This document shows, in pieces, positions 1-58,581 of a stretch of DNA of 64,000 nucleotides. Source of the stretch: Pseudomonadota bacterium. Lineage in GTDB: Bacteria > Pseudomonadota > Gammaproteobacteria > Burkholderiales > JABEVD01. The stretch covers positions 30,822 to 94,821 of the forward strand of contig JAJZRS010000001.1 of NCBI GenBank assembly GCA_021802545.1. Direction: 5' to 3'. Every line of letters starts with the position of its first letter. The first letter of the stretch is position 1. Both the position numbers and the translations under genes were made by a program. Under the pieces are notes generated by a model. The model saw only the letters and a list, made by a program, of their open reading frames with translations, was not told the origin of the DNA and ran no database searches.

Positions 1-1428
1 CTCGATCCGCCCAAAGGCGGATTGATCAGGATCTTTTATCTGCCGAAATCCGACGGCGGCAAGGACGGCCTGCATGCGCTGCTCGTGGTGACTGGGAGCG
101 ATACCAAGGCGCTCAGAATTGCAGCCGAGACATTCGCCAACATGACGCTTCCTTACCCGGGCACACAGGAGATGAATGTTTATTCCTTCGTGATGCCCGA
201 CATTTCCATGTACGGCGGAAGAAGCGAGATCGCGCCGGACAAGAAATATGCCTTCAAGACGATAGGCATGGAATCGATCACCTTCAACGGCCTGAGCGGC
301 GCCGTGCAGGGCGGCTCGCCTGACATCTCCTTCAGGCTGCCGCCCGATTTCCTGATCGAGCAGAATCAATATGCCAAGCTGGTTCTGAACTTCTCCTACG
401 GCTCCGGGATGATGCAGGATTCTGCGCTGGACATCGTGGTGAACGGCATCAGGGTGCAGGACATCCACCTCAACAACCAGGATGGAGCATACATCAGCGG
501 GTACAAGGTCCAGATCCCGACCTATCTTTTCAAGCCCGGCGAAAACGTGATCTCCTTCCAGCCTTATCTCAATGTCGACCATGCGCTGTGCAAAATGGTC
601 AACATCAACATGCCTTTCGTTTCCCTTTACAAGAATTCGACGCTTTATTTCCCCTCCATGCCGCATTTCGTCCAGATGCCCAAGCTGGAGCTTTTCACGC
701 TCAACGGTTTTCCATTCACGCGCTGGCCCGACGGCTACAAGACGCTCGTCTACCTGCCCAAGCACGACGACGCATCCATCGATACCGCCCTCAACCTGAT
801 CGGGACGATCACGCAGAAGAACGGCTTCCCGCTTTTCGGCTTGAAAATCGCCTATTCCGATCCGGGAGACTGGGACGGTGAAATGCTCGTGGTGGGCGAA
901 ATCGGATCGCTGCCCGCATCGCTCATGAAGAATGCGCCGCTCCAGCCGCAAGGAGTGGCCAGCATTTCCTACCCCGTTTCCCGCGGATGGGATAGCGACA
1001 GAACTGCCGTGGTCAGCAAGCAGCAGAGCGGGATTGGCGCAGGGACTGGGCTCGTGATGGAATTCGAATCACCGAAATACAAGGGAAGGTCGGTGATCAT
1101 GGTGACTGCCCAGGATGCAAACGACATGCGCACCCTCGGGGATGCTTTGCTCGATCCGGGCATTCAGGCCAGCCTATTCGGCGACGTTTCGCTGATACGC
1201 CTGGATTTGCCGAAATACCAGGCAAAATCGGTGATGATCGGAAAGATCTATTCAACCGGCCAGAACGGAGGCATCTCCGCTGTGGATGCCTTTCTGTACG
1301 ACCATACCTACCTGTTTTACGCATTGGTCGCTGCGATCATCATCTTGCTGAGCATGGTCGGCTTCTTGCTGATGAGACGCTACAGAAAGAAACGCACCAA
1401 AGTGACTTCAGATGAAAAGCGCGAATAG
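1..1428 (+). CDS. bcsB: Cellulose synthase periplasmic subunit BcsB, C-terminal part (5' end outside window)
   Basis: The frame is open from nt 1 (LDPPKGG precedes the listed Met at 22). BcsB-like blocks are present (LVLNFSYGSGMMQDSALDIVVNG, FPFTRWPDGY). There is a single C-terminal TM anchor (YALVAAIIILLSMVGFLLM) with a basic tail. It overlaps the next gene by 17 nt. Confidence 0.85.
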   Translation, partial: LDPPKGGLIRIFYLPKSDGGKDGLHALLVVTGSDTKALRIAAETFANMTLPYPGTQEMNVYSFVMPDISMYGGRSEIAPDKKYAFKTIGMESITFNGLSGAVQGGSPDISFRLPPDFLIEQNQYAKLVLNFSYGSGMMQDSALDIVVNGIRVQDIHLNNQDGAYISGYKVQIPTYLFKPGENVISFQPYLNVDHALCKMVNINMPFVSLYKNSTLYFPSMPHFVQMPKLELFTLNGFPFTRWPDGYKTLVYLPKHDDASIDTALNLIGTITQKNGFPLFGLKIAYSDPGDWDGEMLVVGEIGSLPASLMKNAPLQPQGVASISYPVSRGWDSDRTAVVSKQQSGIGAGTGLVMEFESPKYKGRSVIMVTAQDANDMRTLGDALLDPGIQASLFGDVSLIRLDLPKYQAKSVMIGKIYSTGQNGGISAVDAFLYDHTYLFYALVAAIIILLSMVGFLLMRRYRKKRTKVTSDEKRE

Positions 1429-4400
1429 GCTCAGGCGGCTTTTCCCCTTCTCCCTGCTTTTCCTGGCACTTGTCTTTTTTCCCGCCAAGGCCGTCGACCT
1501 CACAGTGGTGCGCAAGAAGCTGGCGATGATCGAGCTTCTGATCAAGGCGGGCAGGAAAGAGGAGGCTGCAGCCCAGATGCGCTCTATTTTCCCGAAAGGG
1601 CCGCCTATCGGGGGAGCGCTTGCGCTGGAATATTACGACGTGATCGGCAATACGGATCAAGGCTGGGAGGAAGCGAAGAAAGGGCTGGAGAAGCTGGTTG
1701 CAGCCGACCCGTACGATCTGGGCTACAAGCTGGCGTTTGCCAGGCAGCTGGCAAGAAGGTCGGAGACAAGGCATGAAGGCATGCAGATCTTTGCCGACTT
1801 GTCCAAGAATCCGGACATGAAGCAGCGGGTCCTTGCGGAATGGCGGAAAGCGCTTGGCGAGGTGGCCAATGACGAAGCCGGAATTGCGTTCATTCAGGAT
1901 TATCTTGCGGTCGATCCCGGCAATGCAGACATGCAGGATGCGCTGTCCGTCGCAAAGCGCATCGTGGCTGCCAGCCTGCCCTGGAAACTGCGCAAGCAGG
2001 CCGATATCCAGCTGCAAGCGGGGCACGCCGATGCCGCAATGGCAACGCTCGAAAAGGCGCTCAAGCTCGACCCGAAAAATCCCTGGGTGCGCTTCGATCT
2101 TGCCAGGCTTTTTCTCAAGAAGAAAGGCGAAAAGGCAGGGGATTTCGCGATGGAAAAGGGGCTTGTCCTGCAGCCTGACGATCCCGACATGCTGTACGCC
2201 TATGCCCTTTATCTGAGTCTCGATAACAGGCCGGGCGATGCGCTCAAGATGCTGGACAAGATCCCGCCGTACAGGCTTTCGGATGCCATGCAGCGGCTTA
2301 AGAAAGAGGCGGCGGCCCGCGAGAATGAGATGAAATATGCCTTGGCCCATCCGAATCTTGTCCAGCATGCCGCAACAGGCCCTTCGCCATGGAAACTGCG
2401 CGACGAGGCTTCCGCCCAGCTTGACGCCGGCCATTTCGAGGCGGCGAAAGACCTCCTGAAAAAGGCGCTGAAGCTTGACGCCAGGAATCCATGGGTACGC
2501 TTCGATCTGGCGCGCCTCTACCAGAAAGGTGGGGAGCAGCAGGCAGGGCTTTCCCTCATGAATGAAGGGCTCGGGCTCGCGCCCCAGGATGCGGCCATGC
2601 TCTATGTCAACGCGCTCTACATCGCGCTTTCGGACGAGGCTGAGAACGCGCTCGTGCTTCTCGAAAGAATTCCGGAAGCGAAGCGGAGTCAGGCGATGCA
2701 GCGCCTGGCCAAGGAAATGCTCGTCCAGGTCAGGATCAACCGCGCGCAAGCGGCATTCAAGAATGGCCATCTGGATCTCATGCGAAAAGAGATGCTTTCC
2801 GCCGAGCGCGAAGCAGACGGGAACGAAGGACTCATCGACAAGGTGGCCAATACATGGTTCGTTCTGAACAATCCGGAAAGGGGTCTCGCGATCATGAAGC
2901 CGCTCGCGACGACCAGCGACGCCATGATCGACTACGCCAGGCTGCTCGACCGCGCCGAAAAGGATGCCGAACTCGATGGTCTTCTGAGGAAGATTTCAGA
3001 GCAAAGCGGCCTGCTGCCCGAGCAGGAAGACGAAGTGCAGAAAATCCGCCTGTCCATGACGGAGCGCATGGCGAACAGGTTCCTGAAGGAAGGGAATATC
3101 GCCTCCGCCAGGGGGGCGATCGCCCAAATTCTGGAAGACACGTCGCCTCAGGATGTCGACAAGCGCATGACCATCGCCGGCTGGTATCTCGATGCGAATG
3201 ATGCGCGGGATGCGCGCGACATCGTCGAAACGGTGAAGCGGCACGCGCCGTTCGATCCCAGGGTGCTGACGATGGAAGGGCGGATATATCAATCAGAAGG
3301 GGAAGATGAAAAGGCGCTGCTCCGTTTCAAGGAGGCAGGCGCCCTTGAGAATCTCTCGGACATGTTGCGCCATCGCGCAAGGGCCTATCTCGAAACCGGG
3401 GAAAACTATCTCAGCAAGCGGGACGGCTCGCCGGGCATTTCGAACCTGAAGGAATCCGACAAATCGGTGGACATCCATATTCCCTACGGGTATAGGGATG
3501 CCCAGTTCTTCGTCCAGATGGACAGCGTCAGCCTGAATGCGGGCGCGCTTTCGCGCTCGGCGACCGGATCCTATGCGCTGAAGCAGTACGGACAGGTATT
3601 GGCCATGGACCCGCTCCTCAACAAGATCGAAGGCTCGGCCTATGCCAATCCGTCAACACAGGGCATCGCGCTCGGAGTCGGCCTGGAAAAAGGTGATTTT
3701 CGCTTCGATGTCGGCACGACGCCTCGCGGTTTCCCCGTCTCTTACCTGGTCGGCGGCATGAAATGGTCGCATTACACGGCCACAACAGGATTTTCCCTGG
3801 ATGTTTCGCGCCGTCCGGTCACGAGCAGCCTGATTTCCTATGCAGGTGCCCATGATCCAGTGACGGGCCAAGTCTGGGGAGGAGTCAGGAGCACGGGAGG
3901 AAGCCTCCATTTCAGCCGGAGCCGCGGGCCATTGACGGGTTCGCTGGACATGGATATGCACTGGCTGACCGGAACCAACGTGCTGACCAACAAGGAACGC
4001 AACGTCCGCCTCGGGCTCGATTGGGATTTCATCAGGGAGGAGGACATGCGGCTCAATGCGGGGATTGCCGTCAGCGACTGGCATTTCAGCGACGATCTCA
4101 GCAACTACACTTTCGGGCAGGGCGGCTATTACAGTCCGCAGAAATACCATTCGCTTTCCTTGCCCGTACGCTGGGAAGGGCGATGGAGGCGGCTTTCCTA
4201 TCTGCTTCAGGGATCCGTCTCGGTTTCCACAAGCTATTCAAGGGAGGACATGCCCTACTATCCCACAAGACCCGATCTGCAGGCTGCAGCGGGAAATCCC
4301 ACTTATTCCGGAGGGTCGGGGCATGGGATGTATTATTCCGTCGGCAGTGCGCTCGAATATCGGGTTGTCCCGCAACTCTATGTCGGAGGCAGGCTGGAAG

Positions 4401-4522
4401 TGGATCATACCGCCTATTATTCGCCCAACTATTTCACAGCCTACCTGCGCTACATGTTCGATCCCGATTCGGGGCCTGTTCCCTATCCGCCCCAGCCCAT
4501 CAGGCCCTATTCGCAATACTAG
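1412..4522 (+). CDS. bcsC: Cellulose synthase operon protein BcsC (TPR scaffold + C-terminal outer-membrane beta-barrel)
   Basis: Signal peptide (LLFLALVFFPAKA). A long TPR-like region contains a repeated KALKLD(P/A)(K/R)NPWVRFDLARL block. The C-terminal ~330 aa are Gly/Ser/Tyr-rich with alternating beta-barrel-type sequence ending YLRYMF. It follows bcsB directly. Confidence 0.85.
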   Translation: MKSANRLRRLFPFSLLFLALVFFPAKAVDLTVVRKKLAMIELLIKAGRKEEAAAQMRSIFPKGPPIGGALALEYYDVIGNTDQGWEEAKKGLEKLVAADPYDLGYKLAFARQLARRSETRHEGMQIFADLSKNPDMKQRVLAEWRKALGEVANDEAGIAFIQDYLAVDPGNADMQDALSVAKRIVAASLPWKLRKQADIQLQAGHADAAMATLEKALKLDPKNPWVRFDLARLFLKKKGEKAGDFAMEKGLVLQPDDPDMLYAYALYLSLDNRPGDALKMLDKIPPYRLSDAMQRLKKEAAARENEMKYALAHPNLVQHAATGPSPWKLRDEASAQLDAGHFEAAKDLLKKALKLDARNPWVRFDLARLYQKGGEQQAGLSLMNEGLGLAPQDAAMLYVNALYIALSDEAENALVLLERIPEAKRSQAMQRLAKEMLVQVRINRAQAAFKNGHLDLMRKEMLSAEREADGNEGLIDKVANTWFVLNNPERGLAIMKPLATTSDAMIDYARLLDRAEKDAELDGLLRKISEQSGLLPEQEDEVQKIRLSMTERMANRFLKEGNIASARGAIAQILEDTSPQDVDKRMTIAGWYLDANDARDARDIVETVKRHAPFDPRVLTMEGRIYQSEGEDEKALLRFKEAGALENLSDMLRHRARAYLETGENYLSKRDGSPGISNLKESDKSVDIHIPYGYRDAQFFVQMDSVSLNAGALSRSATGSYALKQYGQVLAMDPLLNKIEGSAYANPSTQGIALGVGLEKGDFRFDVGTTPRGFPVSYLVGGMKWSHYTATTGFSLDVSRRPVTSSLISYAGAHDPVTGQVWGGVRSTGGSLHFSRSRGPLTGSLDMDMHWLTGTNVLTNKERNVRLGLDWDFIREEDMRLNAGIAVSDWHFSDDLSNYTFGQGGYYSPQKYHSLSLPVRWEGRWRRLSYLLQGSVSVSTSYSREDMPYYPTRPDLQAAAGNPTYSGGSGHGMYYSVGSALEYRVVPQLYVGGRLEVDHTAYYSPNYFTAYLRYMFDPDSGPVPYPPQPIRPYSQY

Positions 4523-4525
4523 GCA

Positions 4526-5050
4526 TCAGGCGTCCTGCAGTTTCAATTCCTTGTAATAGCGGTCTATGGCCCACTCGACATCTTCCCTTTCCGCATATAC
4601 CGCAGTGGCGTATTTGCCGGTGGCAAATCGCAGCGCCTGCAGGATATCGTGATCGAGAGGATTGCGCATCGCGACAACCACATGACTGCGGTGCAGGAAG
4701 CAGGGCATCAGGACGAGCCTTCTTGCCGTCAGGTTGGGCACGAGCTTGACCGCCTCGGTCTCGATTTCCAGGCTGCGCAAATCGACCCTGGGTATGCCGA
4801 GCCGTGCGGCGAGAACCGAGTCGACCGAATCCGCATCCACCGCACCCGCTTCGATGAGGATCTCGCCGATGCGTTTGTCTTTCGCTGTGTTCTGGATCTC
4901 GACCGCCTTGTCAAGCTGCGCGCGGGTGATCAGCCCTTCGGCAAGCAGCTGTTCGCCAAGCAGCGAAATGGGTTCCCTGTTGCGCGTGTCGAGCGCTTGT
5001 CTGAGGCTGGCGGCGTCGGCGATGATCTTGCCGAATGCGGCTTGTTCCAT
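4526..5050 (-). CDS. Stand-alone MshEN + T2SSE_N domain protein (no ATPase domain); putative c-di-GMP receptor
   Basis: Two tandem 24-residue MshEN-type motifs are separated by a 5-residue spacer: LLGEQLLAEGLITRAQLDKAVEIQ-NTAKD-KRIGEILIEAGAVDADSVDSVLAA. A GspE/PilB N-terminal-like region follows (LGIPRVDL...VKLVP...). The protein ends at 174 aa with no Walker motifs. It lies 75 nt downstream of bcsG on the same strand. Confidence 0.7.
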   Translation of the reverse strand: MEQAAFGKIIADAASLRQALDTRNREPISLLGEQLLAEGLITRAQLDKAVEIQNTAKDKRIGEILIEAGAVDADSVDSVLAARLGIPRVDLRSLEIETEAVKLVPNLTARRLVLMPCFLHRSHVVVAMRNPLDHDILQALRFATGKYATAVYAEREDVEWAIDRYYKELKLQDA

Positions 5051-5125
5051 GGGTTTCCTGTGCGAGAGGCGCGTTCAGTAGATGGGGTTTAAGCTACCAC
5101 ACATTCTGTTCAAATTCAAAAACTG

Positions 5126-6673
5126 TCAGTTCGAATCGTATGGAACCCACGCCTGGTCGTTGGACTTGATGTAATACTGTTTGCCGCTTCTCATGACGAC
5201 GATGCCGGAATTTTCAGCGACATGATCCGTCTCTGGCAGGTCGTTGACGTAATCCGACATGCTCAGATTGCCCTTGCCGAAAGGGGGAATTTCGATGAAT
5301 TCTGAAAACAGCTTCGCGAGGGCAAGATAGCTGGACGGCTTGGACACGACGACCTGGCCTTTGCCTTGAAAGCCGAACAGCTTGATTCCGACTGGCACCG
5401 TCGTGATGAGCGGCGTGGGGATTTCCCTCAAGCCTGCGATCTGCATCTTGTCGCCGCGCACCGATGCGCCGTGTTCCCCGATGACGACCACCACGGCGTT
5501 CCGCTTCGATGCTTCAAGCAGGTCGAAGAAGCGGCTTATATCTGCAAGAAGCTGGTGCAGTCTGGGCGGATAGATCTTCATGCTATCCTCGCGGCGTCCC
5601 ATGTACTGGTCGCCGTCGTGCATGCTGATGGTGTTGTAGTACAGGGCGACGCGTGAATCTCCCGATTTGATGCGGTTTTCCCACCATTTGGAAAGCACCG
5701 TGTAATCGTCGTGAATCGGCGAACCGTCGAAGGCCTGAAGGTAGGTCGGAAGGCCGCTCGAATTGAAAGGCGTGACGTCCAGTCCGCCCCGGACCTGGAT
5801 GTCCGGGTTCAGGAAGCCCCCGTAGAGGCCGTCATGGTTCATCGCGATCTCCGGCGTGTAACCGATTTTCTGAAGATTGTCGAAAGTGAGGCATTCCTTG
5901 CGAGGCGGGTCGTAAAGCGCCTTGTGCATTTCTTGTCCGCAGCTGCTGCGCAGCAGGCGTATGGCTGCGGGGCCGCTGTATGAGACTGCGGAATTGAAAT
6001 CGGTGAAGAGGATGTTGAACCGCTTGAACAGCGGGTTGTCGTGCTCGTGGGTGAAATCGATGTCATCCCAGGAAAGCGAACAGATTTGCAGGATGATGAT
6101 GTCGAAAGGCGCATCGGATTTGTCCGGGATCTTGAAAGAGACGGACCGGCCTGCTTCATTCCTGAAGAATGCATCGAGCTGGGCGGAAAGGCTTGCATCC
6201 GTCGGCGCGCTCGACGTTTCTGCCGAAGCGGTATTATCGCCACTTGCCTCGAGGTTGGCTGATTTGCCGGTCAAGAACAGGGGAACGAACATGGCGATGA
6301 AGACGAAGGAGGAAATGCGCAGTTTTTTTCTGGTCAGGAAATAGACGAGGAAGGCAACGGCCATGCCTGCGACGACATACGGATTGATGAAGCGTCCCAG
6401 GAGCTCGATCAGGTAGCGAGGCGTGAATCCCCTGAGTTCGGAGGATTGGGAAAAAGCCCTTGAGATTGGCGGGAGCCATGTGTCATAGTAGAAAAGCGAG
6501 AAGCCAATGGGCAGCGAAATCAGCTTCTTGAATTTCGAAAAGCGTGCAAGCCGCACGGGAAGCGGGAAAATCAGGAACAGGGCGAATGCCAGGTTCAGCC
6601 AGGGATGAAAGCCCATGTGGTGGCTGAAATACAGATAGAGCTTGGAAATGAAATACAGGTCCCACAAACCCAT
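5126..6673 (-). CDS. bcsG: Cellulose phosphoethanolamine transferase BcsG
   Basis: N-terminal multi-TM region, then an alkaline-phosphatase-superfamily domain with the BcsG-type nucleophile context IIILQICSLSWDDIDF. Its size and bcs neighbourhood fit BcsG. Confidence 0.85.
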   Translation of the reverse strand: MGLWDLYFISKLYLYFSHHMGFHPWLNLAFALFLIFPLPVRLARFSKFKKLISLPIGFSLFYYDTWLPPISRAFSQSSELRGFTPRYLIELLGRFINPYVVAGMAVAFLVYFLTRKKLRISSFVFIAMFVPLFLTGKSANLEASGDNTASAETSSAPTDASLSAQLDAFFRNEAGRSVSFKIPDKSDAPFDIIILQICSLSWDDIDFTHEHDNPLFKRFNILFTDFNSAVSYSGPAAIRLLRSSCGQEMHKALYDPPRKECLTFDNLQKIGYTPEIAMNHDGLYGGFLNPDIQVRGGLDVTPFNSSGLPTYLQAFDGSPIHDDYTVLSKWWENRIKSGDSRVALYYNTISMHDGDQYMGRREDSMKIYPPRLHQLLADISRFFDLLEASKRNAVVVVIGEHGASVRGDKMQIAGLREIPTPLITTVPVGIKLFGFQGKGQVVVSKPSSYLALAKLFSEFIEIPPFGKGNLSMSDYVNDLPETDHVAENSGIVVMRSGKQYYIKSNDQAWVPYDSN

Positions 6674-6796
6674 GGCGGCAATCCTGAAGACGAACTGGTA
6701 GTATAATCCAGTCGTGCATGCACGAACTACTTGAAATGCGCTCTAAATTTGCACAAAATCATATTCAAACGATTTTAGGTACAATCGGGGTGGGCA

Positions 6797-7513
6797 GTGG
6801 AGGTAATCGAGCGATTTTCCACATTGCTGGAATGCAGGACCGAAGCTTCCTGGATGGATATGCTATTCGGGCTGGCGGGTCATTTCGGCTTCGATAGTAC
6901 GCTGATCGCAGTTGTTCCGGAGCCCGGCGCTTCCCTCGAGCAGGCTTTCCTGCGCAGCAACTATTCTCCGAAATGGCGCGGCGTCTATGACGAATCCAAG
7001 CTGGTTTACGTCGACCCGACCGTGGCCCATTGCTTAATGCATTCGACGCCGCTGATCTGGGAGCCCGACCTGTTCGATACCAAGCCCCGGAGAGCGATGT
7101 ATGAAGAGGCATGCAGCCATGGCTTGCGCTCCGGCGTCACCCTTCCTTTCCACGGTTCGAACGGGGAGCATGGCATACTGTGCTTCGTCAGCGACATCCA
7201 GCCGGACAGGCGTTTTCTGAACGATGTGCAAAGATTCATGCCCGAACTTGCACTGTTGCGCGATTTCGCTTTCGAGGCGGCCTTGCAGTATGCGAGGGAC
7301 GACCAGGATGATCAGCAGGTTCCTTCCGTCACGCGCCGCGAACTCGAGTGCCTCAAATGGGGCGCTGCAGGAAAAAGCTCCTGGGAAATCGCCAAGATAC
7401 TTCGATGTTCGGAATCGACTGTCAATTTCCATTTTGGCAACATCCGCCGAAAATTCGATGCAACTTCACGCCAGCAGGCGGTCGTCAAGGCAATCAAGCT
7501 GGGGATGATCTGA
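6797..7513 (+). CDS. luxR: LuxR-family AHL-responsive transcriptional regulator
   Basis: GTG start. N-terminal autoinducer-binding-type domain (W..Y....L..VDP, GILCFV). C-terminal LuxR HTH (RELECLKWGAAGKSSWEIAKILRCSESTVNFHFGNIRRKF). Confidence 0.85.
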   Translation: MEVIERFSTLLECRTEASWMDMLFGLAGHFGFDSTLIAVVPEPGASLEQAFLRSNYSPKWRGVYDESKLVYVDPTVAHCLMHSTPLIWEPDLFDTKPRRAMYEEACSHGLRSGVTLPFHGSNGEHGILCFVSDIQPDRRFLNDVQRFMPELALLRDFAFEAALQYARDDQDDQQVPSVTRRELECLKWGAAGKSSWEIAKILRCSESTVNFHFGNIRRKFDATSRQQAVVKAIKLGMI

Positions 7514-7760
7514 TTGATGCGCGCCGCCTGCGGGCTTGCCGCAAATCGCCGTCCGTGATTATCCCTTCCAGGTAAAGCGTCAGCAAAATGGCAACGGGCG
7601 GAGGAATTTCCTTTCCCAGTTCGAAGCGGCTGCCGCGCGATTGGGTCACCCCGAATCTTCCCCAGAAGAGGAACTGACTTTCTTTCTTCGCCTTTCTGTA
7701 GCTGCGCAATATGTCCGGAGTCATGTTTCGGTCATCATCCAATTGTTGCTCTACACGCAT
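7494..7760 (-). CDS. Small HTH protein between luxR and luxI, RsaL-like repressor candidate
   Basis: 88-aa ORF (alternative Met at 7724) antisense to both neighbours, overlapping the luxR 3' end by 20 nt. The central block ESQFLFWGRFGVTQSRGSRFELGKEIPPPVAILLTLYL looks like the RsaL-type HTH as I remember it. Position and orientation are the same as rsaL in las/ppu-type loci. Confidence 0.55.
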   Translation of the reverse strand: MRVEQQLDDDRNMTPDILRSYRKAKKESQFLFWGRFGVTQSRGSRFELGKEIPPPVAILLTLYLEGIITDGDLRQARRRRASIRSSPA

Positions 7761-7785
7761 ATTGCTACAAATTCCGACATTGCGT

Positions 7786-7805
7786 ACCTATCAGGTCTGA
7801 TAGTT
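7786..7805. promoter_or_regulatory. lux-box-like 20-bp imperfect palindrome in the rsaL-like/luxI divergent promoter region
   Basis: ACCTATCAGGTCTGATAGTT. The two 10-nt half-sites match as reverse complements at 8 of 10 positions, with CT...AG ends as in las/lux boxes. It lies 26 nt from the rsaL-like start and about 80 nt upstream of the luxI start. Confidence 0.55.
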
Positions 7806-7885
7806 ACAAATTTTAGCCAATAGGCATAATTTTTATGCGTCCTGGGTATTTCCAGATAACCAACATGGGGGCGCATATCATGTCT

Positions 7886-8467
7886 ATGTCGATTCAAATC
7901 GCTGCACGGAAGGACTTTCAAAGCAAGGAGCTGTGGCAGATGTTTCAGCTGAGGGCCAAGGTGTTCAAGGACAGGATGGGGTGGGATGTTTCCATCTTGA
8001 GCGGCATGGAAATCGACGGCTACGATGCGCTCGATCCGTATTACATGGTGATCCGCGAGCCTGGCAATACTGCGGTGCGCGGGTGCTGGCGGCTGCTTCC
8101 CACGGAGGGGCCTTACATGCTGAAGGATACTTTTCCTGAACTGCTGCACGGGCAGCCCGTTCCGGAAGGAAAGGGAATATGGGAGCTGAGCCGCTTTGCG
8201 ATCGAGACGAACGGGGATAGAAATTTCGGCTTCGCCGATCTGGCGCTCGATGCGATGCGCGAGATTGTTTCATTCGGCGACCGCATGGGCATAGATCGCT
8301 ACGTGACGGTGACCACCACGGCCATCGAACGCCTATTGCGGCGCACCGGCATCGTTATTCACCGCTTCGGTCCGCCGATCAGGATCGGGGTCGAAAATGC
8401 AGTTGCCCTGGAGATCGATATCGGGGAAGAGACTCACCAGGCGCTGTTCGGGAAAAAGGTGGCTTGA
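7886..8467 (+). CDS. luxI: Acyl-homoserine-lactone synthase (LuxI/LasI family)
   Basis: Blocks typical of LasI-like synthases: MSIQIAARKDF, LRAKVFKDRMGWDV, EIDGYDALDPYYM, GPYMLKDTFPELLHG, WELSRFAI, VTVTT. The ORF is open from 7835, but Met at 7886 aligns with the usual N-terminus. Confidence 0.9.
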   Translation: MSIQIAARKDFQSKELWQMFQLRAKVFKDRMGWDVSILSGMEIDGYDALDPYYMVIREPGNTAVRGCWRLLPTEGPYMLKDTFPELLHGQPVPEGKGIWELSRFAIETNGDRNFGFADLALDAMREIVSFGDRMGIDRYVTVTTTAIERLLRRTGIVIHRFGPPIRIGVENAVALEIDIGEETHQALFGKKVA

Positions 8468-51230: not shown

Positions 51231-52991
51231 ATGAGAAATACTATTGCAAGCCTTCTTGCCGTGCTGCTTGCAGGATGCGGGACCCAGCCCATCGCTCCAT
51301 CGCCGCACCATCTGAAGGCGGGACCCGCGCCGCAAGGCAGCATTCCTCAGCCTGTCCGATCGAGCATCGCGCTTCTTCCTCCCCCCAGGCCTGCTGCAAA
51401 ACTCGCCGTCTACAGCGTCTCAGTATTCAACGTGCCCGTCCAGGAACTGCTCTATGCGCTCGCACGCGACGCAGGCGTCAACATCGACATCCATTCCGGC
51501 ATCACCGGCACGGTGACCATCAATGCGATCGATCAGACTTTGCAGCAAATCCTGGGCCGCATCTCGGAGCAGGTCGACATGCGCTACGAGATGCACGGAT
51601 CCGACATTTCAGTCATGCCCGATACGCCCTATCTCATCAACTACAAGGTCGATTACCTGGACATGTCGCGCGAGACGAACGGTTCCGTTGCGATCATCAC
51701 CCAGGTCGCCACCCCGGGCGCAGGGGTGGCGACGGGAGGTGCAGCGACGGTTTCAGCGGGCGTCAACAATTCGACCACTTCAGTGACGAATGTCGCCAAG
51801 AACAAGTTCTGGGAAACATTGATCCAGAACATCAAGGACCTTCTGCACGAGACAGACAAGATTCTTCCGGCAGGCTCGTCCGAGACGGTGGTCCAGCAAG
51901 CCGGCATCCAGACCACGACGGGAGGCGCCGCGGCTCCAGGCAAATCTTCCAGAAAGGGGGCGAAGGATTCGATCGCAGGAAGCCCGACGCCAGCGACCTT
52001 GCAAAACATCGGCACCACCGTCATCAAGCGCACGACATTCAGGGAAGCCTCTTCCGTCATCGCGAATCCTGAAACAGGCATCATCAGCATCCGTGCAACG
52101 TCACGCCAGCACAAGAAAATTCAGGCTTTCCTGGACAGGGTCATGCAAAGCGCGAAAAGACAGGTCCTGATCGAGGCGACCGTTGTCGAAGTCCAGCTGA
52201 GCGACAAATATCAGCAGGGAATCGACTGGGCAGGGCTCGCGAACGGCGGGAAGGGCTGGAGCATCGTCCAGTCGCCTGTCGGGGGCATTCCATCGGCAGT
52301 CAACCAGAGCCTTTTCGTGCTGAGCTATACGAATCCTGCGTCAAAATTCGGAAACCTGTCTGCGACGATCTCCCTGCTCGAATCCTTCGGCAAGGTGAAG
52401 GTGCTTTCCAGTCCCCAGCTCAGCGTCCTCAACAATCAGACTGCGCTGCTCAAGGTGGTCGACAACCGGATTTATTTCACGATCCAGGCCAATACCAGTC
52501 AGAACCAGACCACTACCCTCACGACTTACACCACAACGGTCAATTCCGTTCCGGTCGGATTCGTGATGAACGTGACGCCTGAAATCAGCGGCAACGATTC
52601 GGTGATCATCAATTTGAGGCCGACCATTTCGAGAATTCTCGACTATGTGCCCGATCCAAACCCTTCGCTTCCTGCAACCGTCAAGAACCTGATTCCAGAG
52701 ATCCAGACTCGGGAAATGGAATCGGTGATCAGGGTGCAAAGCGGACAGATTGCCGTCATGGGCGGGCTCATGCAGGATTCGGTCAACAATCTGGACGATG
52801 CCGTGCCCGGACTGTCGGGATTGCGCGGCATCGGGAATTTCTTCGCCCACAAGAACGATACCGCGACCAAGTCCGAATTGGTCATCTTCCTGCGCCCGGT
52901 CGTCGTCAAGGATGCCAGCCTGAACGGGAATTTCGCAAGCTTCAGAACTGTTCTTCCGGACAGGGATTTTTTCGATACCGGAGGAAATTGA
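51231..52991 (+). CDS. Lipoprotein-type secretin (GspD/PilQ family, MshL-like)
   Basis: Lipobox LLAGC. The C-terminal secretin block is VKVLSSPQLSVLNNQTA...ESVIRVQSGQIAVMGGLM...VPGLSGLRGIGNFF.......ELVIFLRP. Confidence 0.85.
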   Translation: MRNTIASLLAVLLAGCGTQPIAPSPHHLKAGPAPQGSIPQPVRSSIALLPPPRPAAKLAVYSVSVFNVPVQELLYALARDAGVNIDIHSGITGTVTINAIDQTLQQILGRISEQVDMRYEMHGSDISVMPDTPYLINYKVDYLDMSRETNGSVAIITQVATPGAGVATGGAATVSAGVNNSTTSVTNVAKNKFWETLIQNIKDLLHETDKILPAGSSETVVQQAGIQTTTGGAAAPGKSSRKGAKDSIAGSPTPATLQNIGTTVIKRTTFREASSVIANPETGIISIRATSRQHKKIQAFLDRVMQSAKRQVLIEATVVEVQLSDKYQQGIDWAGLANGGKGWSIVQSPVGGIPSAVNQSLFVLSYTNPASKFGNLSATISLLESFGKVKVLSSPQLSVLNNQTALLKVVDNRIYFTIQANTSQNQTTTLTTYTTTVNSVPVGFVMNVTPEISGNDSVIINLRPTISRILDYVPDPNPSLPATVKNLIPEIQTREMESVIRVQSGQIAVMGGLMQDSVNNLDDAVPGLSGLRGIGNFFAHKNDTATKSELVIFLRPVVVKDASLNGNFASFRTVLPDRDFFDTGGN

Positions 52992-53921
52992 ATGGCGAGC
53001 ATGGACGAAGCCGTGCAGAAAAAACCAATCGATGCATGGCGACAGCTTCTCCGGTCGAGGCGATTCTGGCTTTGGACGGCTGCCGCCATCTGCATTTTTC
53101 TTGCCTTGGGCGTCGCCTACTATTATCTGCATCACAGGCAGGCCCCCAAGCCTGCAGCAGTGCATCCTATCGTGATGCCGCCCGCCCAGCCCAAAGCCCA
53201 GCCTGAGCCTGCGTCTGCGCCTACTCCCGAGCCCGAGACGGAAAAGCCCGAAACCAGCGAGGCCAAACCGCAGGAACCCCCACAGGAAAAGCAGCAGCAG
53301 GAAATCAACACCCTGAAAATCGAGAAGCGCGAAGCAAAAACCGCAATCAATCCGATTTCGGCAAAAGGATACAGGGCGATGATGTCCCATGATCTTGCCG
53401 GTGCGCAGAAGGACTATGCGCGTCTCCTTGCGCAGGACCCGCAGAGCCGGGAGGCGTTGTACGGGCTTGCCGCAATAGCCATGAAAATGGGGAAGGTGGA
53501 CCTCGCAGAACGCTATTACGAGAAGGTGCTGGAAATCGATCCCGAGGACCCTGTCGCCACAGCAAGTCTCGTCGACCTGGGGAATGTGTCCGACGGAGAA
53601 AGCAGGCTGAAGATCGCGCTCCAGCGTTCTCCCGATTCGGGCGCCCTCTATTTCAGCCTGGGCAACCGGTACGCATCCGAATCTTCCTGGGCGGAAGCGA
53701 AGCAGGCCTATTTCGAGGCCTATAGCCGCGACGTATCGAATCCCGATTTCGCCTTCAATCTGGCCGTGAGCTGCGACCACCTGGGGCAGTCTGGTTCTGC
53801 GCTGCGGTTTTACAGGAAGGCGATCGCGCTTTCTTCGGGCGGGTTTGCCGGATTCGATATCGAAGCTGCGAAAAAAAGGGCGAGCGAATTGGAAGAAGAG
53901 CATGTCGGGCGAACGCAATAA
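52992..53921 (+). CDS. Bitopic TPR-repeat protein (MshN-like by position)
   Basis: An N-terminal TM helix, a Pro/Glu/Lys-rich linker (PAQPKAQPEPASAPTPEPETEKPE...), then TPR-like repeats. Confidence 0.6.
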   Translation: MASMDEAVQKKPIDAWRQLLRSRRFWLWTAAAICIFLALGVAYYYLHHRQAPKPAAVHPIVMPPAQPKAQPEPASAPTPEPETEKPETSEAKPQEPPQEKQQQEINTLKIEKREAKTAINPISAKGYRAMMSHDLAGAQKDYARLLAQDPQSREALYGLAAIAMKMGKVDLAERYYEKVLEIDPEDPVATASLVDLGNVSDGESRLKIALQRSPDSGALYFSLGNRYASESSWAEAKQAYFEAYSRDVSNPDFAFNLAVSCDHLGQSGSALRFYRKAIALSSGGFAGFDIEAAKKRASELEEEHVGRTQ

Positions 53922-55332
53922 ATTGCTGGGCAGGATGCTGATCGAGAAGGGCGTGATCAGCGAGGATCAGCTGAGAATTGCGCTCCTTGAACAGGTGAGG
54001 GCGCTGCTCGGAGAGGACTGCGAACTCCATCTGATGCTCGCATCCGAATCCGAGGTCATGCGGTCGATCGATCAGTATTACGGATTCGAACTCTCGATCG
54101 AAGGCATCTTGCAGGAAATCGAGCCGGGGGAGGCGGAATATCCGATCCTTCAGGCCGGGACGGAGAGCGAATTCAGTCAGCCTGTCGTGCGCCTCATCGA
54201 TGCGCTGCTGTCCGATGCCGTGCAGCGCGGCGCATCCGACATCCATTTCGAACCCGAGCGGAGTTTCTTGCGCATACGCAGCAGGATAGACGGCGTTCTT
54301 CGCCAGATGCGGAGCCTGCACAAATCCTACTGGTCTCCCATGGCAGTGAGGCTGAAGGTGATGAGCGGGATGAACATCGCCGAGAATCGCGCGCCCCAGG
54401 ACGGGCATTTTTCGCTGCTCCTCTCGGGCAGGCAGATCGATTTCAGGGTCTCCGCCGAGCCCACCACCCATGGGGAGAATATCGTCCTCAGGATACTCGA
54501 CAGGCAGAAAGGGATCGTTTCCCTCGAAGACCTCGGATTGGGCGAAGAAGAGCTCGATATGCTCAAGTTCATGATTTCGAAGCCGGAGGGGATCATCCTG
54601 GTGACAGGACCGACGGGAAGCGGGAAAACCACGACACTTTACTCGATCTTGAGCCGGATCAATACCGAAGCGATCAACATCATGACGCTCGAGGACCCTG
54701 TGGAATATCCGATGCCGATGATCAGGCAGGCTTCCGTCAACGAGATGGCGAAACTGGATTTCGCGAGCGGCATAAGGTCGATGCTTCGCCAGGACCCGGA
54801 TGTCATCCTGGTCGGGGAGATACGCGATGAGCCCACTGCGGTCATGGCGTTCAGGGCGGCGATGACGGGGCATCAGGTCTATTCGACGCTGCATACCAAT
54901 TCCGCGATAGGCGCCATTCCGAGATTGTTCGACCTCGGCATCCATCCAGAGATCATGGCCGGAAATGTCATCGGCATGGTCGCGCAGCGACTGGCAAGAA
55001 GACTTTGCCCGGCGTGCAGGATGGCCCATGATCCCGATCCCGAGGAAGAGCGGGTGCTCGGCGAAAAAAGATCCATCTACAGGGCATCGGGGTGCGAATC
55101 CTGCGATTTCCAGGGCTATTCGGGCAGGTTCGCGATCATGGAGCTGGTTCTGCTCGACGAGGATTTCGACGATCTGATCGTGCGCCGCGGGACATTGAGA
55201 GAAATGAGGAATCTCGCCGGCATGAAGGGATTCAGGACGCTTGCGCAGAATGCGGTGCGCGCCGTGTCGTCTGGAATGACTTCGCTGGAAGAGATTTCGA
55301 GGGTGGTCGATTTGACCGGCAGGGCGGCATGA
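53902..55332 (+). CDS. GspE/PilB/MshE-family secretion/pilus-assembly ATPase
   Basis: ATG at 53902; the listed ORF starts at an upstream TTG. Walker A is GPTGSGKTT. The Asp box, Walker B and His box regions (LRQDPDVILVGEIRD, TGHQVYSTLHTN) and a CxxC...CxxC cluster are present. The N-terminus has one MshEN-like 24-mer, LLGRMLIEKGVISEDQLRIALLEQ. Confidence 0.9.
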   Translation: MSGERNKLLGRMLIEKGVISEDQLRIALLEQVRALLGEDCELHLMLASESEVMRSIDQYYGFELSIEGILQEIEPGEAEYPILQAGTESEFSQPVVRLIDALLSDAVQRGASDIHFEPERSFLRIRSRIDGVLRQMRSLHKSYWSPMAVRLKVMSGMNIAENRAPQDGHFSLLLSGRQIDFRVSAEPTTHGENIVLRILDRQKGIVSLEDLGLGEEELDMLKFMISKPEGIILVTGPTGSGKTTTLYSILSRINTEAINIMTLEDPVEYPMPMIRQASVNEMAKLDFASGIRSMLRQDPDVILVGEIRDEPTAVMAFRAAMTGHQVYSTLHTNSAIGAIPRLFDLGIHPEIMAGNVIGMVAQRLARRLCPACRMAHDPDPEEERVLGEKRSIYRASGCESCDFQGYSGRFAIMELVLLDEDFDDLIVRRGTLREMRNLAGMKGFRTLAQNAVRAVSSGMTSLEEISRVVDLTGRAA

Positions 55333-56528
55333 CGCCCTTCCATTACAAGGCGATTGACCAGTTCGGCATGGTGAGAAGCGGCGTGCTCGATGCCGTGGAC
55401 GAAGATGATCTCGAAGCGCGGCTCAAAAGAATCGGTCTTGAGCTTGTTTCGGGAAGACCTGCATTCAGAAAGGGATTTGTCTTCGGCAAAAGAGTGGGCA
55501 GGCGGGACTTGATCACCTTCTTCTTCAATCTGGAACTGTTGACGAGGGCAGGCGTTCCCCTGCTGGAAGCGCTTTCCGATCTGAGAGACACCATGGATGT
55601 TCCGCATTTTCGCGAGATCATCGCAGAGATGATCAAGAACATCGAAGGAGGGATGCAGTTTTCCCAGGCGATGGCGCTCAATCCCAACGTATTCGACAAT
55701 GTGATGGTCAACCTGGTGAAGGCGGGGGAAGAGAGCGCGCGGCTTCCGGCTATCTTCCAGCATCTGACCGAGTCGCTCAAGTGGCAGGACGAAATGCATG
55801 CGCAAACCAAGCAGATCCTGATCTATCCAGCTTTCGTCCTCACCGTCGTGATCGCCATCACCTTCTTCCTGATGATCTATCTGGTTCCCCAGCTCGGGAC
55901 TTTCTTCAGGAATATCGGGCAGACGCTTCCGCCGCAAACCAGGATGCTGCTTGCCGTATCGGATTTTTTCGTTCATTACCGCTATTTCCTGGTGCTGATC
56001 CCGATTGGCCTGTTCGCGGCGGCCAAGGCCGCCATGATGATGAGCGGGAAAGTCAGGTATGCGGTCGACCGGATGAAGACAAGAATATGGGTCGTCGGCC
56101 CCATTCTGCTCAAGATCATCCTGGCGCGGTTTTCCAACACATTTGCGATCATGTACGAGTCGGGCATCAGCATTCTCGACTGCATCGCCATATCCAAGGG
56201 AATAACGGGAAACCTGGTCATCACAGACAGGCTCGACCATGCATGGCGGGAAATCGAAGCGGGGAAAACGCTGCTCCAGAGCTTCCAGTCATCCAGCATC
56301 TTTCCAGCGCTCGTGCTCAGGATGATCAAGGTAGGAGAAGTGACAGGGCATCTGGACGAGGCATTCTACAACGTGAGCTATTTCTATGAGCGCGACACCC
56401 GGGAAGCCATCCGACGCGTCCAGGTGATGGTCGAGCCTTTCCTGACCGTCGTGCTCGGGGCCATGCTCGGATGGATCATGCTCTCCGCGATCACGCCGAT
56501 CTACGACATGCTCGGGAAGATCAGATGA
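55329..56528 (+). CDS. GspF/PilC/MshG-family inner-membrane platform protein
   Basis: The start ATG overlaps the ATPase stop. Two repeated GspF-type halves and three TM segments are present. Confidence 0.85.
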   Translation: MTPFHYKAIDQFGMVRSGVLDAVDEDDLEARLKRIGLELVSGRPAFRKGFVFGKRVGRRDLITFFFNLELLTRAGVPLLEALSDLRDTMDVPHFREIIAEMIKNIEGGMQFSQAMALNPNVFDNVMVNLVKAGEESARLPAIFQHLTESLKWQDEMHAQTKQILIYPAFVLTVVIAITFFLMIYLVPQLGTFFRNIGQTLPPQTRMLLAVSDFFVHYRYFLVLIPIGLFAAAKAAMMMSGKVRYAVDRMKTRIWVVGPILLKIILARFSNTFAIMYESGISILDCIAISKGITGNLVITDRLDHAWREIEAGKTLLQSFQSSSIFPALVLRMIKVGEVTGHLDEAFYNVSYFYERDTREAIRRVQVMVEPFLTVVLGAMLGWIMLSAITPIYDMLGKIR

Positions 56529-58018
56529 ACGTCCAGATTTTCATCTCCGACAGGCAATGCATCGTCGCGCAGCGGACCAGAAAGTCTCTGCATGTTCTGC
56601 TCGAAGTCGCGAACAGCGAAGAAGGATTGAGAAAGTTCGAGCGATTCATCATGGATGCCGGGGTGACCTGCTCAAGCATCTTGACCGATTTCGTCGAGGA
56701 GGATTATCGCGTCGAGTATATTCCCCATCTCGGCTGGCTGGACAGGAGGCGCTTCCTCGAAAAAAAGCTGAACCAGCTTTACAAGCAAACGCCTTTCCGC
56801 AACAGGCTCATCGATGGGCATGAAGGGGGAGGCGAGCGCGTCCTGTTTTCCGCGCTGACGAATCCGAATCTGCTGCTGCCCTGGGTCGATTCGCTTCTGA
56901 TGCGCAAAATTCCCATTTCCGGGATTTCCTCGGTGGCGATGCTGAGCGGGAAACTGCTGCCAAAAAACATTTCATCCCATCTCCTGCTGCTCAGTTTTCA
57001 GCAGGGATCCGGGCTGAGGCAAAGCTTCTTCCTGAACGGAAAATTGCATTTTTCGCGTCTGACGCTCGTTCATCCTGACGACGACCGAATCGGGATCGTC
57101 AGGTCGGAATCCGAAAAGGTGTACAAGTATCTGCACGCGCTCAGCCTCCTGCCAGAAAAAGGGATGTTGTCCGTCCTTATCCTATGCGGCATGGAAGAAG
57201 GCGAATTGCTCGATGAGGCAATGATGGAAAGCGTCGCCATTCATCCCATCATCCTGGATTTGAGCGAGATTGCAAAGGAAATCGGACTCGACGGTCGGAT
57301 TTCGGACGCATTGCCGCTTTTTCAGCATCTGTTCGGGAAGAGCGTCAATCATTACGGCAGCGAGCAGCACACGCACGGCTACGAATTGATGCAGTGGCGG
57401 CATGCCGCCACTGCATTGTCCATCGCGCTGATTCTCGGGGGGGTATCTCTTTCCGCGATCGATGCAGGCAGAGCGCTCGAATTCAAAAGCCAGGCAGCAT
57501 TGCTCGCCTCTCGAACACTGGAAGCGGAAAGCAGGTACCGTTCGATCCGGCAACCTGGCAGGGATTCCCCGCAGAAGATCAACGAGGTTGTATCCCTTGA
57601 CGAAATGATCGAGTCGAAATTTCCGAGCCCAGGGAAAATGCTGGTGAAAGTGGGCCATGCGCTCGTTCCATTTACTGACATCCGCATCAATCGTCTTTCT
57701 TGGCAGGTTGCCGGTAACGCTGGATCGGCAAAGGCGGTGTCCGGAGAATTCGAGCCCGGGAGCGGATTTTTCGAGCCGGGCCCAAGCCAGGTCGCGTTTG
57801 CCATCGATGGGGAGATCTATCCTTTCGACGGCAGCTACAGGCATGCCAACGAAACCGTCGAGCGGTTCTGCAAGGATCTGGAGAAAGCCGGGATGCACAT
57901 CAGCAAGGTCAAGTTGCCGCTCGACCTCAATCCTTCGGCAAATCTCGTCGGAAGGTTCAGACAGGGGGAGGAAAGCGCTTCCTTTGTCCTCGAAGGTTTC
58001 ATGAAGGTCGGCTCATGA
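56525..58018 (+). CDS. Hypothetical bitopic pilus-assembly protein (PilM/N-, MshI- or GspL-like by position only)
   Basis: ATGA-coupled to the platform gene. About 320 cytoplasmic residues, one TM helix (ATALSIALILGGVSLSAI) and about 160 periplasmic residues. No motif was recognised. Confidence 0.45.
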   Translation: MNVQIFISDRQCIVAQRTRKSLHVLLEVANSEEGLRKFERFIMDAGVTCSSILTDFVEEDYRVEYIPHLGWLDRRRFLEKKLNQLYKQTPFRNRLIDGHEGGGERVLFSALTNPNLLLPWVDSLLMRKIPISGISSVAMLSGKLLPKNISSHLLLLSFQQGSGLRQSFFLNGKLHFSRLTLVHPDDDRIGIVRSESEKVYKYLHALSLLPEKGMLSVLILCGMEEGELLDEAMMESVAIHPIILDLSEIAKEIGLDGRISDALPLFQHLFGKSVNHYGSEQHTHGYELMQWRHAATALSIALILGGVSLSAIDAGRALEFKSQAALLASRTLEAESRYRSIRQPGRDSPQKINEVVSLDEMIESKFPSPGKMLVKVGHALVPFTDIRINRLSWQVAGNAGSAKAVSGEFEPGSGFFEPGPSQVAFAIDGEIYPFDGSYRHANETVERFCKDLEKAGMHISKVKLPLDLNPSANLVGRFRQGEESASFVLEGFMKVGS

Positions 58019-58581
58019 AGCTGGGAAAATCGGATTTTCCTCTATTGGGAAAGCCACTGCTTCTCCTTGTCTTTGCCATTCTTTTCGCTCTGACCCTGTC
58101 GATCCTTGGACGGAGTTATCTCGGGAAGATGGAAGGAAAAGCGTACTCTGCGGAAAAGTCCCTGCTCCTTGCAGAGGACAAGATCAGACAGGCCAGGCGT
58201 GAAAGCAGCGCCGTTCCGCAAGCAGCCTACGCGCGCATGGAGGAGAGCGGCGCATTTCGCGAATTCAAGCGCATCGATCTCGTCGAACAGCTGGAAAAAG
58301 CGGAACCCATGCTGTTCGATCTGCAATATTCCCTCTTTCCACGGCAGAAGGTGAGGACATCCGGACATTTCATGCTGAACCTCAATCGGGTCAATTTCCA
58401 GCTGAGCCTCCTTCACGAGGGGAAATTGCTGGATTTCCTGGATTTTCTGGAAGCGCAGAAGAACGGCGTGCCGCTCTTTGCGGGATGCGGCATCGAAAGG
58501 CTGTCGACTCGCCCTGCCCTCGAACCCAACCTGAAGGCGGAGTGCACCGTAATCTGGATGACATTGGAGGATGAAAAATGA
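58015..58581 (+). CDS. Hypothetical bitopic protein (PilO/MshJ-like by position)
   Basis: Overlapping start, an N-terminal TM helix and a coiled segment. Confidence 0.4.
   Translation: MKLGKSDFPLLGKPLLLLVFAILFALTLSILGRSYLGKMEGKAYSAEKSLLLAEDKIRQARRESSAVPQAAYARMEESGAFREFKRIDLVEQLEKAEPMLFDLQYSLFPRQKVRTSGHFMLNLNRVNFQLSLLHEGKLLDFLDFLEAQKNGVPLFAGCGIERLSTRPALEPNLKAECTVIWMTLEDEK

Follow-up and report, generated by a model that had tools for sequence, protein, structure and literature searches.

Few receptor domains for cyclic di-GMP (c-di-GMP) are widespread; MshEN is among them, and what is understood of it concerns almost only its role as a cis-regulatory module of ATPases and glycosyltransferases. 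Among the ATPases, Vibrio cholerae MshE (PDB 5HTL) and Thermus thermophilus PilF (domains GSPII-B and GSPII-C) combine a two-subdomain fold and tandem 24-residue motifs with an attached T2SSE ATPase; as for the glycosyltransferases, MshEN domains are fused to family 2 (GT2) polysaccharide synthases, 'MshEN - Glyco_trans_2_3' (Wang et al. 2016, Supplementary Table 4), and in these proteins, as in Escherichia coli NfrB, MshEN gates a processive synthase by c-di-GMP in cis. In cellulose systems carrying phosphoethanolamine (pEtN), the enterobacterial bcsEFG operon co-encodes with bcsG a second c-di-GMP sensor, BcsE, by way of its GIL domain. The present work concerns a free-standing MshEN protein, P0001, whose gene lies directly behind bcsG (product P0002) in a 64,000-nt stretch of DNA, here called the window, that corresponds to G000:C32:30822-94821; its genome, G000, has 2.77 Mb and is 99.98% complete, and 19 kb 5' of the window were read as well. 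The prefixes G, L and P denote genomes, loci or contigs, and proteins, respectively.

At this locus a known receptor domain stands alone inside a known gene cluster, an arrangement of which the literature searched has no report: none of its papers connects MshEN with bcsG or with bcs clusters. The distribution of this protein is narrow. The reading favoured here, held with a little less than even confidence, is that P0001, lineage-specific and co-transcribed, serves the Bcs machine in trans as a c-di-GMP adaptor, a recent accessory add-on and not a replacement of BcsE. A MshEN gene locked to bcsG, in a cluster devoid of BcsE, BcsF, BcsQ and BcsR, is a concrete place to seek the trans target of a free-standing MshEN; if the reading is true, Bcs systems acquired accessory c-di-GMP sensing on more than one occasion. 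The weight of this is limited, as the arrangement occurs in one uncultured genus only and sister clusters manage without the gene.

The MshEN protein and its predicted c-di-GMP site

Regarding its domains, the C-terminal half of P0001 matches Pfam MshEN PF05157 (residues 84-168, 61.9 bits, cut-off 23.1), and the N-terminal half (residues 31-82) scores 45 bits with NCBIfam NF053729, 'c-di-GMP_motif, MshE-related', whose cut-off is 38; the domain scan found no ATPase domain and nothing besides MshEN. The first-pass annotation of this DNA, made from the letters alone, had described a 174-aa protein with a GspE-N-like module and no ATPase domain, and this description was borne out. Among PDB sequences, P0001 is best matched by the N-domains of PilF, PilB and MshE (E values of 1e-12 to 1e-20). 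The AlphaFold2 (AF2) model has a mean confidence (pLDDT) of 70; in Foldseek its top matches are 5HTL_A and 5HTL_B, that is MshE with c-di-GMP, with probability 1.00 and TM scores of 0.53-0.62.

The motif positions were set by alignment of P0001 to 5HTL. Both 24-residue motifs are present as first annotated; however, the spacer between them is NTAKDK, of 6 residues and not the 5 (NTAKD) expected of MshEN, so that the annotated motif II was shifted by one, its true start being RIG, and motif I starts with Leu and not with Arg. The two polar deviations, L30 in place of MshE R9 and R83 in place of MshE Q61, are conserved family-wide, with Leu/Met at the former position and Arg/Lys at the latter, and 15 homologues show no change at any Gly or hydrophobic position of the motifs. 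The tandem pattern (R/K/L)hGxxhhxxGhhxxxxhxxxhxx[Q...] is found in P0001; in it, Leu at position 1 of motif I falls inside the consensus as extended in PMC11731258, and outside the relaxed motif of 2016.

These deviations, namely a motif I without Arg that fails the 2016 motif at its first position and the spacer of 6 residues, together with a pLDDT of just 70, could mark a degenerate MshEN that does not bind c-di-GMP and is a scaffold only or on its way to loss. This alternative appears improbable: every other motif position is invariant, NF053729 was matched above its cut-off, the ratio of nonsynonymous to synonymous substitution rates (dN/dS) is about 0.18, and Leu at the same position raises the affinity of PilF. 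In that protein, GSPII-B with the change K167L has a KD of 2 nM, and the consensus was broadened to (R/K/L)LG (PMC11731258); K167L falls at the same motif position as L30 of P0001. Arg or Lys at the last motif position is permitted by the relaxed motif (Wang et al. 2016), and earlier work cited by the same authors reported that changes of MshE Arg9, Asp12 and Gln32 shift the affinity less than fivefold, whereas those at hydrophobic positions cost more than tenfold and binding of G11L was not detectable. As for the spacer, PilF GSPII-C binds c-di-GMP at about 0.5 μM with a spacer one residue longer than that of P0001 (HMMER alignments), so that a length of 5 residues appears not to be strict. 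Leu30, the 6-residue spacer and R83 are compatible with c-di-GMP binding according to these published data; judging from its sequence, P0001 is a MshEN-only, stand-alone protein with a credible c-di-GMP site, and it probably binds the ligand.

Compared with the systems described above, P0001 shares with MshE and PilF the two-subdomain fold and the tandem motifs, and differs from them in having no attached T2SSE ATPase, in the Leu that starts motif I (as in the engineered PilF K167L), in the 6-residue spacer and in a motif II that ends with Arg/Lys and not with Gln. Pseudomonas aeruginosa PA3740, listed as 'MshEN - xT2SSE_N1' (Wang et al. 2016, Supplementary Tables 3 and 4), resembles P0001 in its described architecture; unlike P0001, it has a highly diverged C-subdomain, and it is linked to swarming and not to bcs genes. 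With regard to NfrB, residues 22-170 of P0001 match the MshEN part of model NF008411 at 47 bits versus a cut-off of 1170, and the domain scan found no GT2 domain fused to MshEN; unlike in NfrB, the MshEN protein of the window is separate from the synthase, and this synthase, BcsA, already has two PilZ domains.

Linkage to bcsG

A search of 5.8 billion clustered proteins returned only 15 near-length homologues at least 62% identical to P0001. Their contexts were read for P0006 (two), P0009, P0010, P0012 (three), P0016 (three) and the genome G144, and bcsG lies directly 5' and on the same strand in every readable one (P0001, P0006, P0009, P0012, P0016 and G144); at P0010, a partial open reading frame upstream, at the contig end, matches the BcsG C-terminus. 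The bcsC gene is usually convergent at the 3' side. The survey of MshEN genes beside bcsG that the first-pass annotation had proposed thus gave a positive answer in every close relative read, and a negative one in the order outside the genus (see below).

The bcsG-linked position is tight and conserved among relatives. In the window, the open reading frame coordinates agree with the annotated placement of the MshEN gene 75 nt downstream of bcsG, on the same strand and convergent with bcsC, the two convergent stop codons being separated by 3 nt; no terminator-like site was found in the 75-nt spacer (5051-5125) between bcsG and the MshEN gene, so that co-transcription of the two is likely. The bcsG-linked MshEN proteins are monophyletic (tree support 99/99). 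The context was read for 7 of the 16 members of this clade, and membership was assigned by sequence only, owing to short contigs, for P0005, P0007, P0008, P0011, P0013-15, P0017 and P0018; the longest contigs with P0005 and with the BcsA homologue P0023 are both of 20,763 bp, which suggests a shared contig. The identities of MshEN and BcsG to their window counterparts drop in parallel (88/85, 79/78, 65/67 and 62/67%), and dN/dS is 0.16-0.21 for MshEN versus 0.16-0.19 for bcsG; by this estimate, the MshEN gene is under the same purifying selection as bcsG. Since its insertion, it is proposed to have been inherited vertically with bcsG.

The partner gene itself appears intact, with a conserved catalytic core. 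BcsG matches PF11658 at 595.8 bits and, over its full length, TIGR03368 at 599 bits versus an equivalog cut-off of 410; C198, S233, E400 and H401, which we take to be the equivalents of E. coli C243, S278, E442 and H443, are invariant in 19 BcsG sequences.

As for strain variation, one contig (L005) keeps the bcsG-MshEN pair without adjoining bcsABC, with efp/earP downstream instead. In one metagenome-assembled genome (MAG), a phage-type integrase gene lies just 5' of bcsG (L004:78-1412), and the MshEN proteins of L004 and L005 are identical; together, the integrase and the pair devoid of bcsCBA make the bcs region appear variable between strains.

The arrangement is confined to one uncultured betaproteobacterial genus, whose Bcs genes are closest to those of Gallionellaceae MAGs. 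In a sample of 301 genomes of the order, short high-scoring members of the family occur only in the genus of the window, the remaining matches being N-domains of T2SSE ATPases of roughly 600-900 aa. None of the order-level BcsG loci outside the genus has MshEN next to bcsG, whose neighbours there are bcsA, bcsZ or, once, bcsE; at the class level, BcsG was found in 2 of 400 other genomes, neither with MshEN nearby, a sample too sparse for statistics.

Action on the cellulose machinery and its alternatives

The proposed mechanism begins in one sub-lineage of the genus, where the MshEN gene became inserted between bcsG and bcsC, two genes that converge. P0001 would then be a cytoplasmic, single-domain c-di-GMP receptor encoded by the second gene of a bcsG-MshEN operon; its N half would bind one c-di-GMP with sub-micromolar or better affinity, and its MshEN_C half, the protein-docking module of GspE/PilB N-domains, would engage a cytoplasmic surface of the inner-membrane BcsA-BcsG complex. 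A cellulose system without BcsE, BcsF, BcsQ and BcsR would thereby gain a second input for c-di-GMP. A trans-acting adaptor for the BcsA-BcsG complex is the most economical model, its action on the Bcs machine being inferred.

Regarding the partner, the BcsA of the cluster (1009 aa; G000:C32:27064-30093, L003:15065-18094, just upstream of the window) has two tandem PilZ modules, each with RxxxR and DxSxxG (RKQVR...DVSISG and RKLKR...DVSLTG); R584, R588, S614 and G617 and R777, R781, D805, S807 and G810 are invariant in 44 homologues, many of them labelled Gallionella or Gallionellaceae, and tandem-PilZ BcsA proteins are common in MAGs so labelled. The fold matches of P0001 include the Xanthomonas citri PilB(N)-PilZ complex (7LKM/7LKO), in which a MshEN-fold domain docks a PilZ-fold protein; by analogy only, this suggests the BcsA PilZ modules as candidate partners. 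The more specific proposal of a dedicated second sensor, which would act in trans by docking through MshEN_C on BcsA (for instance on a PilZ module) or on the BcsA-BcsG interface and would tune the synthase or the pEtN decoration at low c-di-GMP, is rather doubtful at this level of detail; if true, the 'activation-by-proxy' logic of BcsE would have been invented a second time, independently.

The first-pass annotation had gone further, and had seen in the MshEN protein a non-homologous replacement of BcsE. Taken strictly, this would mean that P0001 is required for BcsG-dependent pEtN modification or for activation of the synthase. The gene content invites such a proposal: searches of G000 and of four genomes of the same genus found neither bcsE (PF10995) nor bcsF (PF11120), which extends the annotated lack of both genes next to bcsG, and the gene of the predicted c-di-GMP receptor has the same orientation as bcsG, an arrangement also seen in bcsEFG. 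P0001 itself has no PF10995 (BcsE/GIL) match, and the fold of BcsE, with RecA-like, REC* and GGDEF* domains, is unrelated to MshEN. Strict replacement is nevertheless quite unlikely, firstly on account of three clusters, L081-L083, with an identical layout of bcsZ, cyclase, bcsA, bcsB, bcsC and convergent bcsG, a tandem-PilZ BcsA and a BcsG 54-60% identical to P0002: they manage without either BcsE or MshEN, so that nothing needed replacing, and the MshEN gene is better seen as having been inserted later, into a cluster that was BcsE-less before. Moreover, the sister clade of the protein sits at another locus, and a bcsE-bcsG pair exists elsewhere in the same order (L057), so that the MshEN gene is not the general BcsE substitute of the order.

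Secondly, the mode of action of BcsE does not fit. In the cryo-EM macrocomplex of E. coli, the BcsA N-terminus recruits BcsG and neither BcsE nor BcsF contacts it, and BcsE keeps BcsRQ on the synthase BcsA in what was called 'activation by proxy' (PMC11470070); the annotated premise that BcsE works with BcsG therefore holds at the operon level and not by contact. BcsE acts through BcsF, BcsRQ and BcsA and needs the first two, none of which is encoded in or near the window cluster. No bcsQ was found in or near it, the PF06564 matches in G000 being two weak ones (36-39 bits, cut-off 21.3) on a different contig, from a model that matches all 14 control genomes as well; for bcsR (PF10945), nothing in G000 exceeded the cut-off. 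An analogous role of the MshEN protein, that of an additional c-di-GMP sensor whose gene accompanies bcsG, is possible.

Several observations weigh against an action on the Bcs machine altogether. L081-L083, three BcsE-less clusters of the same layout, lack the MshEN gene, and their bcsG abuts bcsC directly. The gene lies within an already conserved gene block, so that its retention could be passive; in addition, the cytoplasmic surface of BcsG is small. While the bcsG-linked form occurs in G000 and G144, a sister form, 47-57% identical, shares the Leu/Met-Leu-Gly start and the 6-residue spacer, and in G043, G187 and G270 it is flanked by a kinase-like APH/AAA_33 gene and by an SLT_2 transglycosylase gene that converges on it. 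Finally, G187 (96% complete) lacks bcsB and bcsG and yet keeps its MshEN protein, which indicates that the basic function of the family does not require Bcs; G097 has bcsB, and neither bcsG nor a stand-alone MshEN.

These data also nourish the main competing explanation, a real though lesser possibility, that P0001 is a general c-di-GMP adaptor or buffer with a target outside Bcs, its place behind bcsG being a historical accident of a relocating gene. The family is present at three loci within one genus, bcsG/bcsC, AAA_33/SLT_2 and, as a further 398-aa variant in G270 (L109:440-1636; L110), adjoining an OEP/HlyD efflux system; in G000, nothing occupies the AAA_33/SLT_2 slot. Identities of 56-64% for AAA_33 and of about 94% for rpoB are compatible with relocated orthologues and a single relocation, a case that the trees separate poorly from paralogy (support 0.28), and the small MshEN gene seems to move from one convergent gene pair to another. 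Its nearest non-stand-alone relatives are the N-domains of T2SSE ATPases of roughly 800 aa, and the target could be one of the nine T2SSE-family ATPases of G000; these include the MshE-like 495-aa protein at 53845-55332, which has no Pfam MshEN match and is thereby a possible trans target of a stand-alone MshEN. Against this explanation, of the three positions, the one behind bcsG alone persists from species to species, to identities as low as 62% and with a short co-directional spacing; the MshEN-less ATPase is 49 kb away and not linked to the MshEN gene in relatives; and the purifying selection equals that on bcsG. With these points the trans-acting Bcs adaptor is tentatively preferred.

Gene layout and neighbouring observations

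The coordinates of the features are collected in Table 1. From upstream, the gene order is bcsZ (glycoside hydrolase family 8, minus strand), the kinase-cyclase gene, bcsA, bcsB, bcsC (plus strand) and the convergent MshEN-bcsG pair (minus strand); beyond bcsG follow the divergent luxR/luxI (6797-8467) and then genes for EipA, a CBS protein and a CHASE-PAS-GGDEF-EAL protein.

Table 1. Features of the bcs cluster and of the sister-form loci; positions refer to the window unless a genome or the protein is named
Feature	Position	Strand	Description
bcsB, 3' part	1-1428	+	gene begins upstream of the window
bcsC	1412-4522	+	TPR and outer-membrane porin; BCSC_C 322.5 bits; convergent on the MshEN gene
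MshEN gene	4526-5050	-	174 aa, P0001
P0001 N half, MshEN_N	residues 30-83		predicted to bind c-di-GMP; motif I L30-Q53, spacer N54-K59, motif II R60-R83
P0001 C half, MshEN_C	residues 84-168		T2SSE_N1-like
bcsG-MshEN spacer	5051-5125	-	75 nt; AGGAA ribosome-binding site before ATG
bcsG	5126-6673	-	cellulose phosphoethanolamine transferase, 515 aa; N-terminal membrane domain, then periplasmic alkaline-phosphatase-type domain
bcsG/luxR divergent promoter region (putative)	6674-6796	.	contains palindrome ACTGG-N9-CCAGT, 6694-6712
Kinase-cyclase gene	upstream of bcsA		P0020, 513 aa; Ser/Thr kinase and class III nucleotidyl-cyclase
Sister-form loci L071, L072, L084	G043:C1, G187:C11, G270:C68

Regarding the promoter region, the palindrome sits 21-39 nt 5' of the bcsG start; its reading as a lux box was rejected, as it bears no resemblance to the palindrome of the luxI promoter (7784-7807). 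The LuxR/LuxI pair is divergent from bcsG in the window and in its closest relatives (L010, L011), and is near the bcs cluster in L083.

Other MshEN and T2SSE genes were also noted. The 495-aa ATPase of the window belongs to a MSHA/T2SS-like pilus cluster (51231-58581) with a secretin, a TPR protein and T2SSF. A MshEN-T2SSE ATPase of 803 aa adjoins mlaA in three genomes (L074:898-3309 in G187:C11; G097:C13; G043:C4), and is not in G000 or G144, the two bcsG-linked genomes; its MshEN domain scores 117-119 bits against the profile of the stand-alone family, among the best matches that are not stand-alone. On a short contig of metagenomic origin (L114:772-2008), the gene for a more distant stand-alone MshEN protein, P0096 (236 aa), diverges from that for a PilZ-only protein of 122 aa.

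Finally, the class III nucleotidyl-cyclase gene (Guanylate_cyc; L003:13517-15058, G000:C32:25516-27057) lies directly 5' of bcsA, and a cyclase gene takes this place in every cluster of this type, also in L004, L007-L011 and L081-L083. The cyclase is fused to a Ser/Thr kinase in some clusters, and L083 has a gene for a kinase with a cyclic-nucleotide (cNMP)-binding part nearby; the position of the cyclase next to bcsA suggests a cAMP or cGMP input to cellulose synthesis.

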